A model generated the notes under the pieces. The model was not told where the DNA came from and did no database searches. It saw only the letters and a program-made list of their open reading frames with translations. DNA of 64,000 nucleotides from an uncultured Armatimonadetes bacterium. GTDB taxonomy: Bacteria; Armatimonadota; UBA5829; DTJY01. Made by a program: the position numbers and the translations under genes. Within the stretch, counting starts at the first letter, position 1; every line of letters begins with the position of its first letter. The stretch covers positions 1,440,001 to 1,504,000 of the forward strand of contig OY970325.1 of assembly GCA_963717145.1 (NCBI GenBank), written 5' to 3'. Below are positions 515 to 45,880 of this stretch, one piece after another.

Positions 515-1621
515 CTAGAGCTTCATGATAAATGCAAGCGCGTAGTAGGGCGGGCGGACATCAATGCCATTCGATAGCTTGCTATCGGTGCCTCTGTCAC
601 TTGGCCCCCCGCTCTGTGTCCTGCTGCCGCCACCAGTCTGACCGCTGCTTGCCCCAGCAGTGCTCCCGTTTGAAGGGCCTTCTGTGTTGAATGTGTGGTA
701 GTGCTCTACGAATGAGGCGTAGTAGTCCTGATCCTGCCCAGTCCACACCCCGTTACCGCTGCCACGACCTGTGTTTGCGTAGTGGGTGTGATACATGCCA
801 TGAGTGTGGTCCATTCCATGTGTGTGATCCATCTCATGCGTATGATTGTTGATCGTATGGCTGTGGCTGAGGTTCAGGACCACATTCGCGCCATTCCCAG
901 TTGATCCAGCCGGGTAGCCGCTGCCAGCGGCCACGATGAACTTATCCTGCAGGTTCGGCGTACCGTTCTGCCCATTGCATAGCGCCCAACCCGATGGAGG
1001 AGTTGCTCCCGACCACATCACGATCACGCCTGTAGGAATAGCTGCATCCGGCGCAAGCTTCTGGCCTGTAACCGAGCCGTTTGCAAGCTTATCGGTGGTG
1101 ACTGCCTGTGCTGCCAACTTGCCAGTCGTCACCCCTGCATCCGCGAGTTTGCCTGTGGCAACTGACTGATCCGCCATCTTAACAGAGGTTACAGCTCCAT
1201 CTGCGAGCTTCGTTACCGTGATCGAGCCATCGACCACGGTCCTGGATATCTGTGCGAACGCGGCACTGGCAATCTTCTGTCTTGGTGACAACTCCGATGC
1301 CGTGCCGATCGCTACTCCGAACCATCGGTCCGGCCCGTCAAACAGGCCGGGTGTGAAGCTAGTCCCACTACCCAGCAGCACGCTGAACAGCCCGCCCTTC
1401 ACCTGAACACTGGTGTTGGTCTCTGACCACAACTGCGTGCCACCGGTTTCCGCATCATAGATCGCGAACGTCATGTTGCACGTTCCATCTGCCACCGGAA
1501 TTCCGGATGACTCCATCAACTTTCCCTGGTAGGAGATCACGGTTGGTACATCAGCAAGAACGGTTGCCGATGTCAAGACCATGAGAGCAGCAAATACGCA
1601 GATCAGTTTCCTGAACATCAT
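515..1621 (-). CDS. Secreted phage tail-fibre-like protein (tail collar domain, HxH tip repeats)
   Basis: Start moved to MMFRKL after AAAGGA RBS; signal peptide; ISYQGKL N-domain; six 10-aa KLADG-type repeats; collar motif IPTGVIVMWSG..PSGWALCNG..GTPNL; six HxH; ends RPPYYALAFIMKL. Confidence 0.8.
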   Translation of the reverse strand: MMFRKLICVFAALMVLTSATVLADVPTVISYQGKLMESSGIPVADGTCNMTFAIYDAETGGTQLWSETNTSVQVKGGLFSVLLGSGTSFTPGLFDGPDRWFGVAIGTASELSPRQKIASAAFAQISRTVVDGSITVTKLADGAVTSVKMADQSVATGKLADAGVTTGKLAAQAVTTDKLANGSVTGQKLAPDAAIPTGVIVMWSGATPPSGWALCNGQNGTPNLQDKFIVAAGSGYPAGSTGNGANVVLNLSHSHTINNHTHEMDHTHGMDHTHGMYHTHYANTGRGSGNGVWTGQDQDYYASFVEHYHTFNTEGPSNGSTAGASSGQTGGGSRTQSGGPSDRGTDSKLSNGIDVRPPYYALAFIMKL

Positions 1622-2012
1622 CGTCCTTTCCATATCCTTTCTCTTCTGCAAACATTGCTTACCGGTTAAGTAGAATAGTCGTAGCAGTGCTAAACGGCAC
1701 ATACCTTGCGGCTGCGCCTGGCCAACGCAAACATTGGCCGACTCATATAGATGTCCGAGCGATGTTCTTCGTTCCGCATCCCCCCTCTCATGGAGAAATA
1801 CATCGGGATCTTTGGACTGAATATGCAGTATGGAACAGCGTGCATTGCCCAGCATTTGCCGAGCAACAAGATATAGCGAGGAAACAGCAGTCGGCGATGG
1901 CCCGTCGGCCGATGTCGTTGATGGGGCACACTTGCGGAACAACATCGCGCGTCGTGGTGATTTGAGCGCAATAAGGATCGTCTCACACCGTGACGGCGAT
2001 CTACCCTAAGCT

Positions 2013-2183: not shown

Positions 2184-2393
2184 TCAGAGCGGCACGATGT
2201 CCGACTGGGTGAGGACGAGGAGGCCGGATGCCTCGACGAGGGCGGTGACCTTCACGAAGGGGAGACCGTCGGGCGGGGCGATGCCGGGGAGATATGAGAC
2301 CGGGAGGTCGCCGGGGATGTTCGAGCCGTCGGTGAGGAAGAACTTGCCGGTGCCGTGCGCGGAGACCTTCCCGATCACCGTCACCGCAGCCAT
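2184..2393 (-). CDS. Small stand-alone OB-fold-like protein or gene remnant
   Basis: 69 aa VTVIGKV..FFLTDGS..PP..VKVT..DIV pattern; overlaps thuA-like stop; weak RBS. Confidence 0.45.
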   Translation of the reverse strand: MAAVTVIGKVSAHGTGKFFLTDGSNIPGDLPVSYLPGIAPPDGLPFVKVTALVEASGLLVLTQSDIVPL

Positions 2394-3028
2394 CCCCCAT
2401 CAACCATCCCCTCCGCTGCCCAGATCGTGCCTCGGACGAGGAGTGGCGCGAACTGTTCGTGACGGCAGCACTCGGGCGTGTGGCCGAGGGCGAGGTAGTA
2501 CACCCTCCCCTGCCCCCAGCTCTTCGTCCAGATCACCGGCTCGGCCTTACCCTCGAAGAGCGCCGACGCCAGCACCATCACGCGCGGATCGTAGTCCATG
2601 ATGTACTGCTCGTCCTCGACGAAGAATTCGACGATGCCTTGGGTGATCGGGTGCTCCGAATCCACCACGCTCACCTGATACATCCTCGGCTTCGGATGAG
2701 TCGTGAAGAGCCCGCCGAGCATGCAGTGGAACTCGGCGCACTCCTTGAACGAGGCCGACGCCGAATGGATGCCGACGAACCCCTTCCCACCGGCGACGAA
2801 CCGCAGCATGCCGTCCCTCTGCGCGTCGGTCACCTCGCCTCGGGTGTAGTAGAGAGCCAACGCATCGTAGCGGTCCAACCCTCCGCCCTCGAGCACGGAC
2901 AAGTCGTCGTGGACGCGGGTCACGTCGAAGCGGCCATCCCCTCGAAGGATCCGCTCGATCTCGTCGCCACAGCCCAGGGAATCGTGGACGCCTCCACCGC
3001 TCAGTACAAGAGTCTTTATGCCTGCCAT
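2381..3028 (-). CDS. ThuA-like domain protein
   Basis: LVLSGGGVH, GKGFVGIHSAS, DEQY, WTKSWGQGRVYYLALGH; GGGAGA RBS before MAGIKT. Confidence 0.85.
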   Translation of the reverse strand: MAGIKTLVLSGGGVHDSLGCGDEIERILRGDGRFDVTRVHDDLSVLEGGGLDRYDALALYYTRGEVTDAQRDGMLRFVAGGKGFVGIHSASASFKECAEFHCMLGGLFTTHPKPRMYQVSVVDSEHPITQGIVEFFVEDEQYIMDYDPRVMVLASALFEGKAEPVIWTKSWGQGRVYYLALGHTPECCRHEQFAPLLVRGTIWAAEGMVDGGWLR

Positions 3029-3112
3029 GACCAATCTCCCAACCGATGTAGTGCTTGACCGTTCGCAGCCAGAGCGATCTCACCGCTGCCAATCTCCGAC
3101 TTATCCGCGCGA

Positions 3113-3129
3113 TTGGCACGAATCTTGCA
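3113..3129 (+). promoter_or_regulatory. Sigma-54 (-24/-12) promoter
   Basis: TTGGCACGAATCTTGCA matches YTGGCACGRNNNTTGCW consensus exactly. Confidence 0.8.
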
Positions 3130-3197
3130 GTAATACAGAGTATAGAGGGACTCGGCAGGCGATCCTGCCAGGGTCCTCAGGAGAAGGAGTGAGTTAA

Positions 3198-3287
3198 ATG
3201 AAGATCATCGCCACCCTGATTGCACTTGCCCTCGTGCTCTTCCTGGTCGAGACTGCTCAGGCCGTGACCACCTGGATCAGCTTCTAG
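3198..3287 (+). CDS. 29-aa signal-peptide ORF, putative secreted peptide precursor
   Basis: AAGGAG RBS; MKIIATLIALALVLFLVETAQA|VTTWISF; below ORF-track size cutoff. Confidence 0.7.
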   Translation: MKIIATLIALALVLFLVETAQAVTTWISF

Positions 3288-3303
3288 CGGGAGGCCGCTG
3301 ACG

Positions 3304-3330
3304 CGGGAGGCCGTTGAAGACCTCCCCTAC
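3304..3330 (-). repeat. GTAG-family REP
   Basis: GTAGGGGAGGTCTTCAACGGCCTCCCG; related copies at 15243, 35784, 43319, 62281. Confidence 0.8.
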
Positions 3331-4097
3331 GTTCTGAGGCCATTCAACACCTTCACCAGGTTATCGCAATAGGCACGGAGCGCGAGCACATCCGCGCCCA
3401 TCGCCAGGAACCGATAACCCATGTCCACGTATTCTTGCGCGTTCTCGGGGGTTGAAGTCGTCCCCGCGAACTTCCCATGCCTGAGGCACACATCGGCCAC
3501 GCGCTTGCGTGTTTCGATCAACTTCGGATGGCTGAAGTCGCCCGGCGCACCGATCCCCTGGCTGAAATCCGCCGGCCCGAAGAAGATGATGTCGATTCCC
3601 TCCAGTTGAGCGATCTCCTCCAGGTCATCCAGCGGCTCGGGATCCTCGATCTGCACCGCGAGGAATCTGTTTCTGTTCGTGAAGGCCAAATACTCCTGGA
3701 AGTCACCGCCGCAGTACTCGCCGTCTGCATTCCCGCTATCCACCGGCCGCCTTCCGATCGGATGGAAGCGCGTCATCCGCACGACGTTCCTTGCGTCTTC
3801 CAGGCTCATTATGTGCGGCACCATGATACCGGCTGCATCCATCTCCAGCGGCCTGATGTAGTCGCTGTATCCGCCCCGAGAGACGCGCACCATCACGTCG
3901 CAGTTCTGTGACTTGGCGGCATAGACCTGCTGCTCGACGACGGAAATGTCGTTCGGCACGTGCTCCATATCCGCCCAGATCGCGTCATATCCGGCCAGAG
4001 CAGCGATCTCGGCGGCACGCGCGCTCTCCAGGTTGAGCTTGAAGATGTTCGCTACTTCGCCTGCGCGAAGTCTATCAAGGATACGGCTTGTACGCAT
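3327..4097 (-). CDS. HpcH/HpaI aldolase family protein
   Basis: WADMEH, GIMVPHI, VQIED, FFGPADFS motifs. Confidence 0.9.
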   Translation of the reverse strand: MRTSRILDRLRAGEVANIFKLNLESARAAEIAALAGYDAIWADMEHVPNDISVVEQQVYAAKSQNCDVMVRVSRGGYSDYIRPLEMDAAGIMVPHIMSLEDARNVVRMTRFHPIGRRPVDSGNADGEYCGGDFQEYLAFTNRNRFLAVQIEDPEPLDDLEEIAQLEGIDIIFFGPADFSQGIGAPGDFSHPKLIETRKRVADVCLRHGKFAGTTSTPENAQEYVDMGYRFLAMGADVLALRAYCDNLVKVLNGLRT

Positions 4098-7911: not shown

Positions 7912-8535
7912 TCACGGACGGCTGGTCCACCACCAGGTGTATGCGTAGATGTGCCAGAACAAGCCCGCAATCAGAGCATAGGACAGGCCGTTTGCGATCC
8001 ATGCCCACCGCGCTGCGCGGGTTCTACTCGCCCTCCCCAAGATCTTCACGGCAACCCGCCACTCGACCCAGACGGACAGCAGGAAGAAAGGAATCAACAG
8101 CACGCTCCAATAGAGCCAGACGTGCATCTGGTGGCCGAATGGACCCCAGCCGACCATCGGCAGTTCGGTCACGGCTATTGCCAGCTTCTGCACCGCTGTA
8201 CCATTCTGCCAGGCCGCAACGGAATCGTGCGAGTGGCGTACAATGGACGCGAAACTTGACGCCACCGGAGAGAGACTCCAGACCAGTAGCCACTTGAATG
8301 GGATTCCCGCGAGTGTCGAGAGCACATTGCCAAAGAGCGTGATCTTCGCTGCCGTTCCTACCTTCCAGCGAAACACGAAGATGCCCACCGCGCCCTCGAA
8401 CAGCATCACGATCGGCAGCACGAGCCATAGTCCGGGATGGACGCACGCGATCAGAGGAATGCCGGCATCGGCGAACGCAGGAGTCGCCACAAGTATGCCA
8501 ACGGCGCATACGGCCATCAGCGTCCATCTACGCAT
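7912..8535 (-). CDS. Hypothetical multi-pass membrane protein
   Basis: GGGAGG RBS before MRRWTL; signal-like AFA|DAG; about 4-5 TM segments. Confidence 0.7.
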   Translation of the reverse strand: MRRWTLMAVCAVGILVATPAFADAGIPLIACVHPGLWLVLPIVMLFEGAVGIFVFRWKVGTAAKITLFGNVLSTLAGIPFKWLLVWSLSPVASSFASIVRHSHDSVAAWQNGTAVQKLAIAVTELPMVGWGPFGHQMHVWLYWSVLLIPFFLLSVWVEWRVAVKILGRASRTRAARWAWIANGLSYALIAGLFWHIYAYTWWWTSRP

Positions 8536-43362: not shown

Positions 43363-43893
43363 ATGAGACGAGTTGCCGTCATTGGATGCGGGGGAGCAGG
43401 TAAGTCGACGCTCGCGAGGGAGCTTGGCTCGATCCTTGGCATCGAGGTCATCCACCTGGATGCGCTGAACTGGAAGCCGGGATGGGTCGATACCCCGACA
43501 GAGGAGTTCCGGGCGGTGCAGGATGACCTCTTGAAGCGCGACTCCTGGATCATCGACGGCAACTACGGGGCCACGATGCCCGGCCGCCTCGCCGCGGCGG
43601 ATACCGTTGTGTTCCTGGACTACCCTACCCTCCTCTGCCTCTACCGCGCCATCAGGCGGATCATCCATTACTATGGAAGAACCAGGCCGGACATGGGTCC
43701 GGGTTGCCCTGAGAAGTTCGACCTGTCCTACGTCAACTGGATCCTCGGATTCCGCAGGCGGCCTCGGACATCGATTCTCAGACGGATCGAGGAGCACTGT
43801 GAGGGCAAGAGAGTGATCATCCTGCGCAGTCCGAAGGAGGCGGAGGCGTTCCTTCGAGAGCTGTCTCGGCACACCCCGACAGAGGCAGCGTAA
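43363..43893 (+). CDS. FlaR-like P-loop (adenylate-kinase-like) topology modulation protein
   Basis: GCGGAGKST, HLDALNWKPGW, WIIDGNY, GCPEKFD. Confidence 0.88.
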   Translation: MRRVAVIGCGGAGKSTLARELGSILGIEVIHLDALNWKPGWVDTPTEEFRAVQDDLLKRDSWIIDGNYGATMPGRLAAADTVVFLDYPTLLCLYRAIRRIIHYYGRTRPDMGPGCPEKFDLSYVNWILGFRRRPRTSILRRIEEHCEGKRVIILRSPKEAEAFLRELSRHTPTEAA

Positions 43894-45259
43894 CCGTGAA
43901 CTTCGTCCCGACGCCAACCGCGCTCTCCACATCGACCGTTCCTCCATGAGCGTCCGCTATCGTTCGCACTATGGAAAGCCCCAGTCCCGTTCCATCAAGT
44001 GTGAGTTTTCGGGCCTCGTCACTGCGGTAGAACTCCTCGAAGATGCGTTCCTGTTCCGCGTCGGGTATGCCGATGCCTGTGTCTGAGACCACTATTCGCA
44101 AGCGATCATCAGCTCCACCAACGCGCACGGTGACGGTCCCGCCCTGGTGCGAATACTTGATCGCATTGCTGACCAAGTTGGTGAGCAGTTGCTCCAGCCC
44201 CTCGGGGTCGCCGCAGATGACAGGAGTATCACCCCGTCTATCGGTAATCACGTTGATGGACCTGGCCCGGGCGTATTCCTCATGCAGGCCAACGACGGTT
44301 TCGATGAGCTGCTCGATGTGAATCTTCTTCCGTCTGGACGAGGGCAGCCTCTCCTCAGCGGCCGCGAGGATGAGAAGGTCGCCGACGACCGCAAGCAGTT
44401 CGCGCGTCCTGCGCTTGGCCCTCAGTATCATCTCGCGGGCATCCGGGGAAACCTCTCCGTGCAACCCATCGGCCACAACTCGCAGCAGGCTGTCCACCGC
44501 CGCCAGCGGAGAACGCAACTCGTGCGCCACCTTGCGCGTGTAGACGCGTTTCGCCTCATCAAGCCCGGCGAGATCATCGTAAGCGATCTGGAGCATATCC
44601 GCATTGTGGCTGACCTTCCGCAGCAGTGTAACCACCTGATCCTCCCGGAAGCGCAGACGGCTGGCGGTCGATGTCGCAAGGTAGACCGTCCCATAAAGCG
44701 CGGTCGCCATCACCCAGACAGCCCCGAGGACCGAGGTCCCGTTCACGTGCATTCCGGGGAAAACCATGCCAATCGGTGAGTCGTAGTGGGGAAGCAGTTC
44801 AAAGTACTCACCGATCGCCATGATCGCGAAGATGGCCAGGGCCACCGTGGCCTGTGCATAGGCGGCTCGCCGGGAGAGCAGAATGCTTGCGATCACCATG
44901 TGGAAAACGAAATAGAAGCCAAAGAGGTTCTCGATACCGCCTGAGAAGTGGATGAGCACTCCGAGGATGACCAGATCGCACACGATCTGGATGTTCGCCA
45001 GCCGTGAGGAGATCCTCTCGATATGCTCGACCCCGACGCGGTTGACCTGTCGCCAGTCCAGATAGGCCACCAGGTTGTAGCACGGGATGGCGCATGCGGT
45101 GACGTACAGGCTCAACCATGGAAGAGAGCTGTCGAATGCGAGGCGCGCGACCAATATCGTGGCGGCAACTCCGACAAACGCAAGCCAGCGGAGGCGGATG
45201 AGCCACCCGATCCGATCGATAAGCTCGAGTTGCGAGAGGCTGAGGTCGTCATTCTCCAT
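43817..45259 (-). CDS. Membrane sensor histidine kinase
   Basis: About 6 TM; AHELRSPL, NLVSNAIKY, DTGIGI, GTGLGL. Confidence 0.92.
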   Translation of the reverse strand: MENDDLSLSQLELIDRIGWLIRLRWLAFVGVAATILVARLAFDSSLPWLSLYVTACAIPCYNLVAYLDWRQVNRVGVEHIERISSRLANIQIVCDLVILGVLIHFSGGIENLFGFYFVFHMVIASILLSRRAAYAQATVALAIFAIMAIGEYFELLPHYDSPIGMVFPGMHVNGTSVLGAVWVMATALYGTVYLATSTASRLRFREDQVVTLLRKVSHNADMLQIAYDDLAGLDEAKRVYTRKVAHELRSPLAAVDSLLRVVADGLHGEVSPDAREMILRAKRRTRELLAVVGDLLILAAAEERLPSSRRKKIHIEQLIETVVGLHEEYARARSINVITDRRGDTPVICGDPEGLEQLLTNLVSNAIKYSHQGGTVTVRVGGADDRLRIVVSDTGIGIPDAEQERIFEEFYRSDEARKLTLDGTGLGLSIVRTIADAHGGTVDVESAVGVGTKFTVTLPLSGCAETALEGTPPPPSDCAG

Positions 45260-45272
45260 GACGAGTACGGCC

Positions 45273-45686
45273 CTATCTCTTACTTGCCAGGATAGCTTCG
45301 ATCTTCGCAGCAAGCCGATCCGGATCCAGAGGCTTCTCGAGGAATCCCTGGACAGGCAGGTAATCTCCACTTTCGTCGGAGTCGCCTTGCCCGAAGCGGA
45401 ACCCGGTGGTCTGATGGATCGAACTGGCGACGATGATCGGCACTTCTCGAAGCGACGTATCCGTGTGATGCCTGATCTTGGAGACCCACTGGAATCCTTC
45501 GATCCCCTGCGGCATCATGATGTCCAGGATGATCAGATCGGGCCTTGCTTCCTCCAATGCCTTGAACCCCGCGTCAGGACCCTCCGCTGTGACGACCTCG
45601 TAACCCCGGTCCTGGAGGAGAAGCTTCGTCGCGTCACGGTAGTCAGGATCGTCATCGACAATCAGGATCTTTGACTTGCTCGCCAT
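45273..45686 (-). CDS. Single-domain response regulator
   Basis: ILIVDDD, PDLIILDIMMP, EKP; no output domain. Confidence 0.9.
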   Translation of the reverse strand: MASKSKILIVDDDPDYRDATKLLLQDRGYEVVTAEGPDAGFKALEEARPDLIILDIMMPQGIEGFQWVSKIRHHTDTSLREVPIIVASSIHQTTGFRFGQGDSDESGDYLPVQGFLEKPLDPDRLAAKIEAILASKR

Positions 45687-45880
45687 ATGTCCTTCACCTC
45701 TCTGGAACAAGCTCTGTGGCGTGTTCCGTTGATCAGAAACTGACTTAAGTTAAGAGTATGTCAAAACCCGGCTTTTGTCAAATTCCCATGGCTTTCACTG
45801 CTATGCAGGAGCATCCTCACCGGCCAAACTTGACATCACCCAACCCGCGTGGTACCTTACCGGTGATAGAGGTGACCACA

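Follow-up and report, generated by a model that had tools for sequence, protein, structure and literature searches.

The 64,000-nucleotide window analysed here (G000:C1:1440001-1504000, from a 5.37 Mb genome, G000, that is 98% complete) carries a previously unannotated 29-codon gene, which the sequence comparisons below indicate is real and conserved. The ORF (3198-3287, plus strand) encodes MKIIATLIALALVLFLVETAQA-VTTWISF, a predicted Sec-type signal sequence with a short C-terminal tail. Promoter, reading frame, ribosome-binding site (RBS), length and motif are conserved in its relatives. We infer that RpoN transcribes the gene, that its product is translated, cut and released, and that the peptide has a target. 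The explanation that we favor, at a little under an even chance, is that the precursor is exported by Sec and cut after AQA, and that the released peptide would be sensed outside the cytoplasm by a membrane receptor encoded elsewhere. The ORF, the signal sequence, the AQA site and the VTTWISF tail are all found where a preliminary description of this DNA had placed them.

Nine members of the family, the window's included, were recovered, and all are 29-31 amino acids long. Of the eight further homologues, two come from genomes of another genus, three from metagenome contigs, and three are database proteins. Among 53 genomes of the class, a 30-aa homologue was found in G010 and in G005 (E about 4e-4 for either), which represent another genus of the same family; in both it has a sigma-54 site and an RBS of its own and ends with FSNWVAGF. 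A pattern search of metagenomes produced 243 matches, of which three loci were confirmed: L066, with the tail VSTWVGF in the same ThuA/HpcH context as the window, L067, with VSTWIGVF downstream of an Omp85 gene, and L068, with FSNWIAGF. Profile searching of 1.84 billion representatives returned three matches at E<=1e-3, of 30, 30 and 31 amino acids, which are unnamed entries available as proteins only (tails VSNWIGGF, ISNGIGGF and FCNWFAGF). DNA context is thus at hand for six loci, namely the window, L066, L067, L068, G005 and G010. Short length and C-terminus are conserved throughout, and the concern raised in the preliminary description, that the homologues might be long secreted proteins, did not materialize.

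The distribution of the gene is narrow, which counts against a released signal. It occurs in three of the 11 genomes of the family (G000, G005 and G010) and in no other of the 53 class genomes. An HMM run over 401 genomes of the phylum at E<1e-3 retrieved only the three genomes it was trained on, and a motif pattern applied to the phylum gave 84 matches, comprising the three known genes and 81 others, of which 51 were examined and none was a member. None of 45 matches to a DNA pattern over genome contigs was a member, in a scan that passed over the known G005 and G010 genes and so was not exhaustive. Approached from the promoter, none of 70 sigma-54 sites in five family genomes heads a similar short ORF; in a scan of five others (59 sites found, 30 loci examined) two of 29 distinct sites do so, both already known, and none of 49 sites examined (57 found) does so in six genomes of other families. 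Known families offered no match above cut-off: the best Pfam E value was 0.013 and the best PHROGs and PDB values were 0.019 and 1.8, NCBIfam gave nothing for three members, and the ESM Atlas yielded no usable match. Literature searches, with subscription journals and supplements largely outside their scope, found nothing on the family, and the motif led to a single, unrelated paper.

The precursor has a simple anatomy. Codons 1-22 (3198-3263, plus strand) specify the predicted Sec-type signal peptide, which ends in a near-invariant VET[A/T]QA c-region, and codons 23-29 with the stop (3264-3287, plus strand) specify the predicted released peptide VTTWISF. Across the eight distinct sequences the signal part is always 22 residues (one has an additional N-terminal residue), the n/h/c layout and [A/T]-Q-A are always present, and K2, A9, V17, E18, T19, Q21, A22 and the C-terminal Phe never vary. 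Only A or T occurs at -3 in these sequences, and always Ala at -1; by the A-x-A rule cleavage would be expected after residue 22. The tails of the homologues comprise 7-8 residues and follow the consensus hydrophobic-S/T-N/T-W-hydrophobic-small-(small)-F, with Trp at +4 in 7/8 and Ser/Thr at +2 in 7/8; where the tails differ in length, the Trp keeps its distance from the predicted cut and not from the C-terminus. G000 encodes four signal peptidase I enzymes and one exosortase, and eight of its PEP-CTERM paralogues have signal peptides of equal length that end in AQA.

Selection acts on the protein. Over codons 2-27, pN/pS ranges from 0.00 to 0.39 (15 pairs, uncorrected), and between genera the protein is kept although substitution at synonymous sites approaches saturation. 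The region is also covered by contigs of two other studies; one of them spans the ORF, and among the differences listed for it no indel falls inside the ORF. We count the short lengths, the pN/pS values, the A/T-x-Ala site and the signal peptidase I and exosortase genes in favor of a released signal, and likewise the AQA-ending signals of the eight PEP-CTERM paralogues together with the Trp fixed to the cut. The same applies to the comparison of the window with L066 (87% DNA identity), in which none of the 22 signal residues and three of the seven mature residues changed. A contig of run X2, however, has substitutions in the signal region as well, which weakens the argument that the mature part diversifies.

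The conservation of the signal region itself points in another direction. The window and G010 share 12/22 signal residues and 6/6 in the c-region, compared with 2-4/22 and 1-2/6 in three orthologous control pairs. Such conservation far exceeds that of ordinary signal peptides and argues against a released signal, since a disposable leader needs none of it. The chief alternative, possible though unlikely, is that the product is instead a membrane microprotein whose helix, either uncleaved or left after cleavage, binds and tunes one particular inner-membrane protein in the manner of MgrB with PhoQ; the partner might then be a sensor kinase, a c-di-GMP enzyme, the exosortase or a signal peptidase. 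Conservation of residues 2-16 does follow a helical period of 90-100 degrees, which places it on a single face of the helix (p 0.0005 by shuffling and 0.0004-0.014 when one sequence at a time is left out, values that overstate the significance because the sequences are related), the length of 22 residues is constant and V17-E18-T19 is invariant. On the other hand, the periodicity disappears over residues 2-22 (p 0.17) and 2-26 (p 0.28), eight paralogous signal peptides of an ordinary PEP-CTERM family trend alike (p 0.053), and the A-x-A site is a textbook one. MgrB and SafA, as described in the available sections of PMC12648545, resemble the micropeptide in having fewer than 50 residues, a single hydrophobic helix and membership of a regulon on which the product could feed back. 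According to the same sections, membrane-anchoring signals usually lack a signal-peptidase site, whereas the micropeptide has a conserved site of this type. A further point for a microprotein is that G000 has a second, unrelated 28-codon gene (~2218.3 kb, minus strand) in a cassette with a membrane HD-GYP/DUF5317 protein. Its product likewise begins like a signal peptide and ends in a tail of eight residues that includes a Trp. It differs in lacking VET[A/T]QA and the terminal Phe and in directly preceding its HD-GYP partner, whereas the micropeptide gene is an orphan.

The promoter, TTGGCACGAATCTTGCA (3113-3129, plus strand), matches the -24/-12 consensus exactly, with GG at 3115-3116 and GC at 3127-3128, and belongs to the class that heads PEP-CTERM genes. 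TGGCAC-N5-TTGC is matched exactly once in the 64-kb window against an expected 0.06 (6/100 shuffles contained a match), so the exact site reported earlier is confirmed and unique in the window; transcription would be predicted to start near 3140. All six loci with DNA context have a sigma-54 site 44-71 nt upstream of the start codon, close to the mean distance of 71 nt given for proteobacterial PEP-CTERM promoters in the accessible part of PMC1569441. Sigma-54 control is plausible, given this conservation and the two rpoN genes above the family cut-off in G000, which dispose of the earlier reservation that the genome might lack rpoN. One of the two adjoins genes that are presumably flagellar, judging from their appearance. 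Four -24/-12 sites near this flagellar-looking rpoN end in TTGCT, while the micropeptide promoter is of the other class, TGGCAYNNNWNTTGCA. This class has 28 sites in G000, 13 of which head PEP-CTERM ORFs (12 of the 59 such ORFs), and several of the others precede short CT-rich elements ending in terminators. An arrangement of a sigma-54 site followed by a short anti-Shine-Dalgarno CT-tract element was seen at G000:3764492, 3764905, 4125874 and 4126070 and at many loci of relatives. At the micropeptide promoter, an 8-bp inverted repeat (3087-3118) overlaps the -24 element with its right arm. It is a possible operator of narrow distribution: both arms also occur in L066, and the repeat was not seen in L067, G005, G010 or L068.

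As the preliminary description had noted, the window contains no enhancer-binding protein; the genome has three strong ones among seven PF00158 matches, all elsewhere. One of them is a receiver-AAA activator (G000:3047972-3049174) without an HTH match. An activator that has no DNA-binding domain would need no linked enhancer, which would fit an orphan promoter and is counted in favor of a released signal. The adjoining kinase (GAF-PAS-HisKA) is soluble, with no membrane segment, and so could not sense an external peptide directly, a point against a released signal. In its promoter type, its organization as a single-gene unit and the presence of an exosortase in the genome, the micropeptide system resembles the sigma-54 PEP-CTERM regulon controlled by PrsK/PrsR, as far as the available portions of PMC1569441 and PMC9850573 describe it. 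It differs in that the micropeptide lacks a PEP-CTERM tail and the activator a DNA-binding domain, and in that activator and kinase, in the one cassette scored, stay below the PrsR and PrsK cut-offs (401 bits against 502.6 and 111 against 300). A separate observation concerns the first ~90 kb of G000:C1, where GC is 0.62-0.66 compared with 0.60 in the window and the protein style differs near 2-16 kb. This segment is possibly foreign sequence, in which case the enhancer-binding protein at 8284 may be that of another organism.

Under the favored explanation, the monocistronic micro-gene would belong to a sigma-54 envelope regulon, transcribed alongside PEP-CTERM surface proteins by the non-flagellar RpoN and the receiver-AAA activator without a DNA-binding domain. 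The precursor would enter the Sec pathway, signal peptidase I would cut after [A/T]-Q-A, and a hydrophobic peptide of 7-8 residues would be released into the periplasm or the medium. There it could signal to a membrane-bound sensor encoded elsewhere, either a histidine kinase or a c-di-GMP enzyme, and the signal would feed back on surface or aggregation behavior. Re-import to a cytoplasmic RRNPP receptor would play no part. The searches described below found no family-5 peptide-binding protein, no TPR receptor adjoining the gene and no HTH-TPR protein among the HTH_3 matches, and the tail, if released, would have to act outside the cytoplasm.

Four candidate receptors were compared with the distribution of the peptide in G000, G005 and G010 among the 11 family genomes, and none fits cleanly, which tells against a released signal. 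The window itself encodes a membrane histidine kinase with a PilS-like 6TM domain (43817-45710, minus strand), 40 kb from the gene and preceded by a receiver-like ORF; this kinase is present in 6/53 class genomes and was not found in G005 or G010. TMTC-like proteins occur in 38/53 class genomes and a membrane HD-GAF-GGDEF protein in 8/11 family genomes. A membrane GAF-HD-GYP protein (G000:4737662-4739317) is weak at best as a candidate, being found in 4/11 family genomes, the three carriers plus G001, and in 24/53 of the class. In its own right, this GAF-HD-GYP protein (L254, L275) is notable for invariant LRW, YN and D residues in the membrane domain. Its gene directly follows pilus-assembly-like genes in G000 and G001, and the protein might sense pilin.

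The six loci fall into three neighborhoods, defined by ThuA/HpcH, by Omp85/SPW, and by a 692-aa membrane GT-TPR protein with HtrA. In the window, the ThuA (2381-3034) and HpcH aldolase (3327-4097) genes are separated by a 290-nt peptide unit on the opposite strand. The same two genes are contiguous in G006, without the peptide gene, and in G001 the end of HpcH borders directly on an Omp85 gene, with 70% identity to the one in L067, again without it. In G005, G010 and L068 the gene sits between TMTC-like GT/TPR genes and HtrA. Three neighborhoods, together with absence from the matching G001 and G006 sites, show the gene behaving as a self-contained unit, mobile and prone to loss, as would be expected of a trans-acting gene; this too is counted in favor of a released signal. 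Two other features of these regions may be recorded here. G005 and G010 (3.1-3.2 Mb) have 30-31 TMTC-like GT-TPR matches, with tandem arrays such as L077:1-10161, and G000 has nine; and window positions 515-1945 (minus strand) encode a repeat-containing protein that looks secreted and includes a phage tail collar domain.

The neighborhoods also suggest an improbable alternative, in which the released peptide does not act as a population signal but serves the envelope-building machinery as its ligand, substrate or brake. PDZ domains and Omp85 proteins bind C-terminal hydrophobic residues. The terminal Phe, present in 8/8 sequences, might accordingly bind the HtrA PDZ domain, the Omp85 barrel or TMTC-like TPRs, or the Ser/Thr at +2, present in 7/8, might be glycosylated. 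In favor of this alternative, every neighborhood other than those of the window and L066 is envelope-related (Omp85; TMTC-like GT/TPR and HtrA). However, no neighbor is common across the lineages, a terminator-like hairpin with a U-run parts the peptide gene from HtrA, and the HtrA orthologue of G000 has no peptide gene upstream. The presence of TMTC-like genes in 38/53 class genomes speaks against it as well, and we take the Gly or Ala at -3 of the 8-mer tails to be unlike a beta-signal.

RRNPP systems depend on Opp-type re-import of their peptides. We consider it highly improbable that the micropeptide is a propeptide of this type, which after secretion would be taken up again through Opp and recognized in the cytoplasm by a TPR receptor. 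The analogy to Phr, PapR and arbitrium peptides drawn in the preliminary description nevertheless holds for the layout. Like Phr, PapR, NprX and AimP/arbitrium in the accessible text of PMC10075063, the gene encodes a small precursor in which a predicted Sec-type signal leads into a short C-terminal peptide. Criteria 1-2 of that text describe a small propeptide with such a signal; the 29 codons and the AAGGAG RBS agree with a propeptide of 10-100 aa that has an RBS, and the n/h/c layout with [A/T]-Q-A would suit the signal. The analogy breaks down at the receiving end. The RRNPP signature in the same text requires an adjacent TPR receptor of 250-500 aa, and such a receptor adjoins the gene in 0/6 loci. 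No PF00496 (family-5 peptide-binding) protein was matched in the 98%-complete G000, although 11/14 control genomes have a match. There are five HTH_3 matches in G000 and no HTH-TPR protein among them; the one of 373 aa combines HTH with Peptidase_M78, and the rest are short or a ParB-like frame. None of 116 pattern matches in viral contigs was confirmed. The micropeptide differs further in its outer-membrane host, its sigma-54 promoter and the lack of a pro-region between signal and tail; the Omp85 and exosortase genes of G000 are consistent with an outer membrane. The gene resembles a Gram-positive signalling propeptide more than anything else, but it would probably fall outside the RRNPP family.

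Peptide pheromones that are sensed at the membrane are also known from Gram-positive bacteria, in the ComX/ComP, CSP/ComD and AgrD/AgrC systems. ComX, CSP and AgrD share with the micropeptide a short, aromatic-rich mature peptide and lineage-specific variants. A linked kinase, prenyltransferase or AgrB-like gene was found in 0/6 loci, and the micropeptide has neither a double-glycine leader nor a conserved Cys. Taken at its broadest, the proposal of a released signal would describe a peptide autoinducer of an outer-membrane bacterium: a Sec-exported 7-8-mer with lineage variants, a member of the sigma-54 regulon, feeding back through a membrane sensor unrelated to the RRNPP, Agr and Com receptors, and perhaps descended from a PEP-CTERM gene's promoter and signal peptide. 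The regulon would take in PEP-CTERM surface proteins as well as small RNAs of the anti-Shine-Dalgarno kind. We put this forward tentatively, as rather unlikely.

The portions of PMC1569441 and PMC9850573 available to us do not settle the trigger of sigma-54 PEP-CTERM regulons, and the accessible text of PMC10075063 places propeptide-derived signals in Firmicutes. A conserved, co-regulated 7-8-mer that can be synthesized cheaply would offer a direct handle on the trigger of the PEP-CTERM regulon. Should the product prove to be a membrane microprotein, the gene would still add a regulator not described before, from a lineage that has received little study. How much weight the finding bears is limited by its narrow distribution and by the lack of a matching receptor.

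The flanks of the ORF are less uniform than its coding sequence. The 5' leader of the window's gene, with a folding energy of -21.5 kcal/mol, contains a hairpin (3145-3178, plus strand; arms 3145-3159 and 3164-3178). Taken over the full 206-nt region, folding is no more stable than in shuffled sequences (z -0.20). Although the hairpin is present as described earlier, it is no family feature, being kept solely in the closest relative, L066 (one of the four other leaders that were folded). The strong RBS of the preliminary description was found again as the Shine-Dalgarno sequence AAGGAG (3184-3189, plus strand), 8 nt upstream of the ATG at 3198, and the RBS is purine-rich in 6/6 loci. By eye, the RBS regions are too variable among members to be targets of anti-Shine-Dalgarno small RNAs, and this possibility was set aside.

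On the 3' side of the window's gene lie a GTAG-type REP (3303-3330) and a 16-nt partial duplicate of it, together spanning 3287-3330; the REP core is matched 128 times in the genome when up to 4 mismatches are allowed and the two strands are taken together. The duplicate begins at 3287, its first base being the last base of the stop codon, and is missing in L066 and in a contig of run X4, and no REP lies downstream of the stop in L067, G005, G010 and L068 (4 of 6 loci). The least credible reading of all is that the ORF is a nonfunctional remnant of a gene for a PEP-CTERM or other secreted protein, truncated at the REP or through faulty assembly. The overlap of stop codon and duplicate favors it, as does the resemblance of promoter class, RBS and signal peptide to their counterparts in the genome's 59 PEP-CTERM ORFs. 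Against it, the four REP-free loci have their stop at the equivalent position to within a codon, the protein is kept by purifying selection at a conserved length despite near-saturated synonymous sites between genera, and no long homologue was found among the 1.84 billion representatives. Truncation by the REP is accordingly rejected. It is conceivable that the micro-gene arose long ago from the 5' end of a gene of this sort.

Searching five loci against Rfam gave sub-threshold miRNA matches only. An element ~150 nt long lies directly 3' of the peptide stop in L032:1594-1745 (G010), L033 and L068:6094-6245; it has no bacterial Rfam match and does not occur in G000. It is 87% identical between G010 and L068, compared with 65-69% in the flanks, ends in a terminator-like hairpin, and is possibly a structured 3' UTR or a 3'-derived small RNA.
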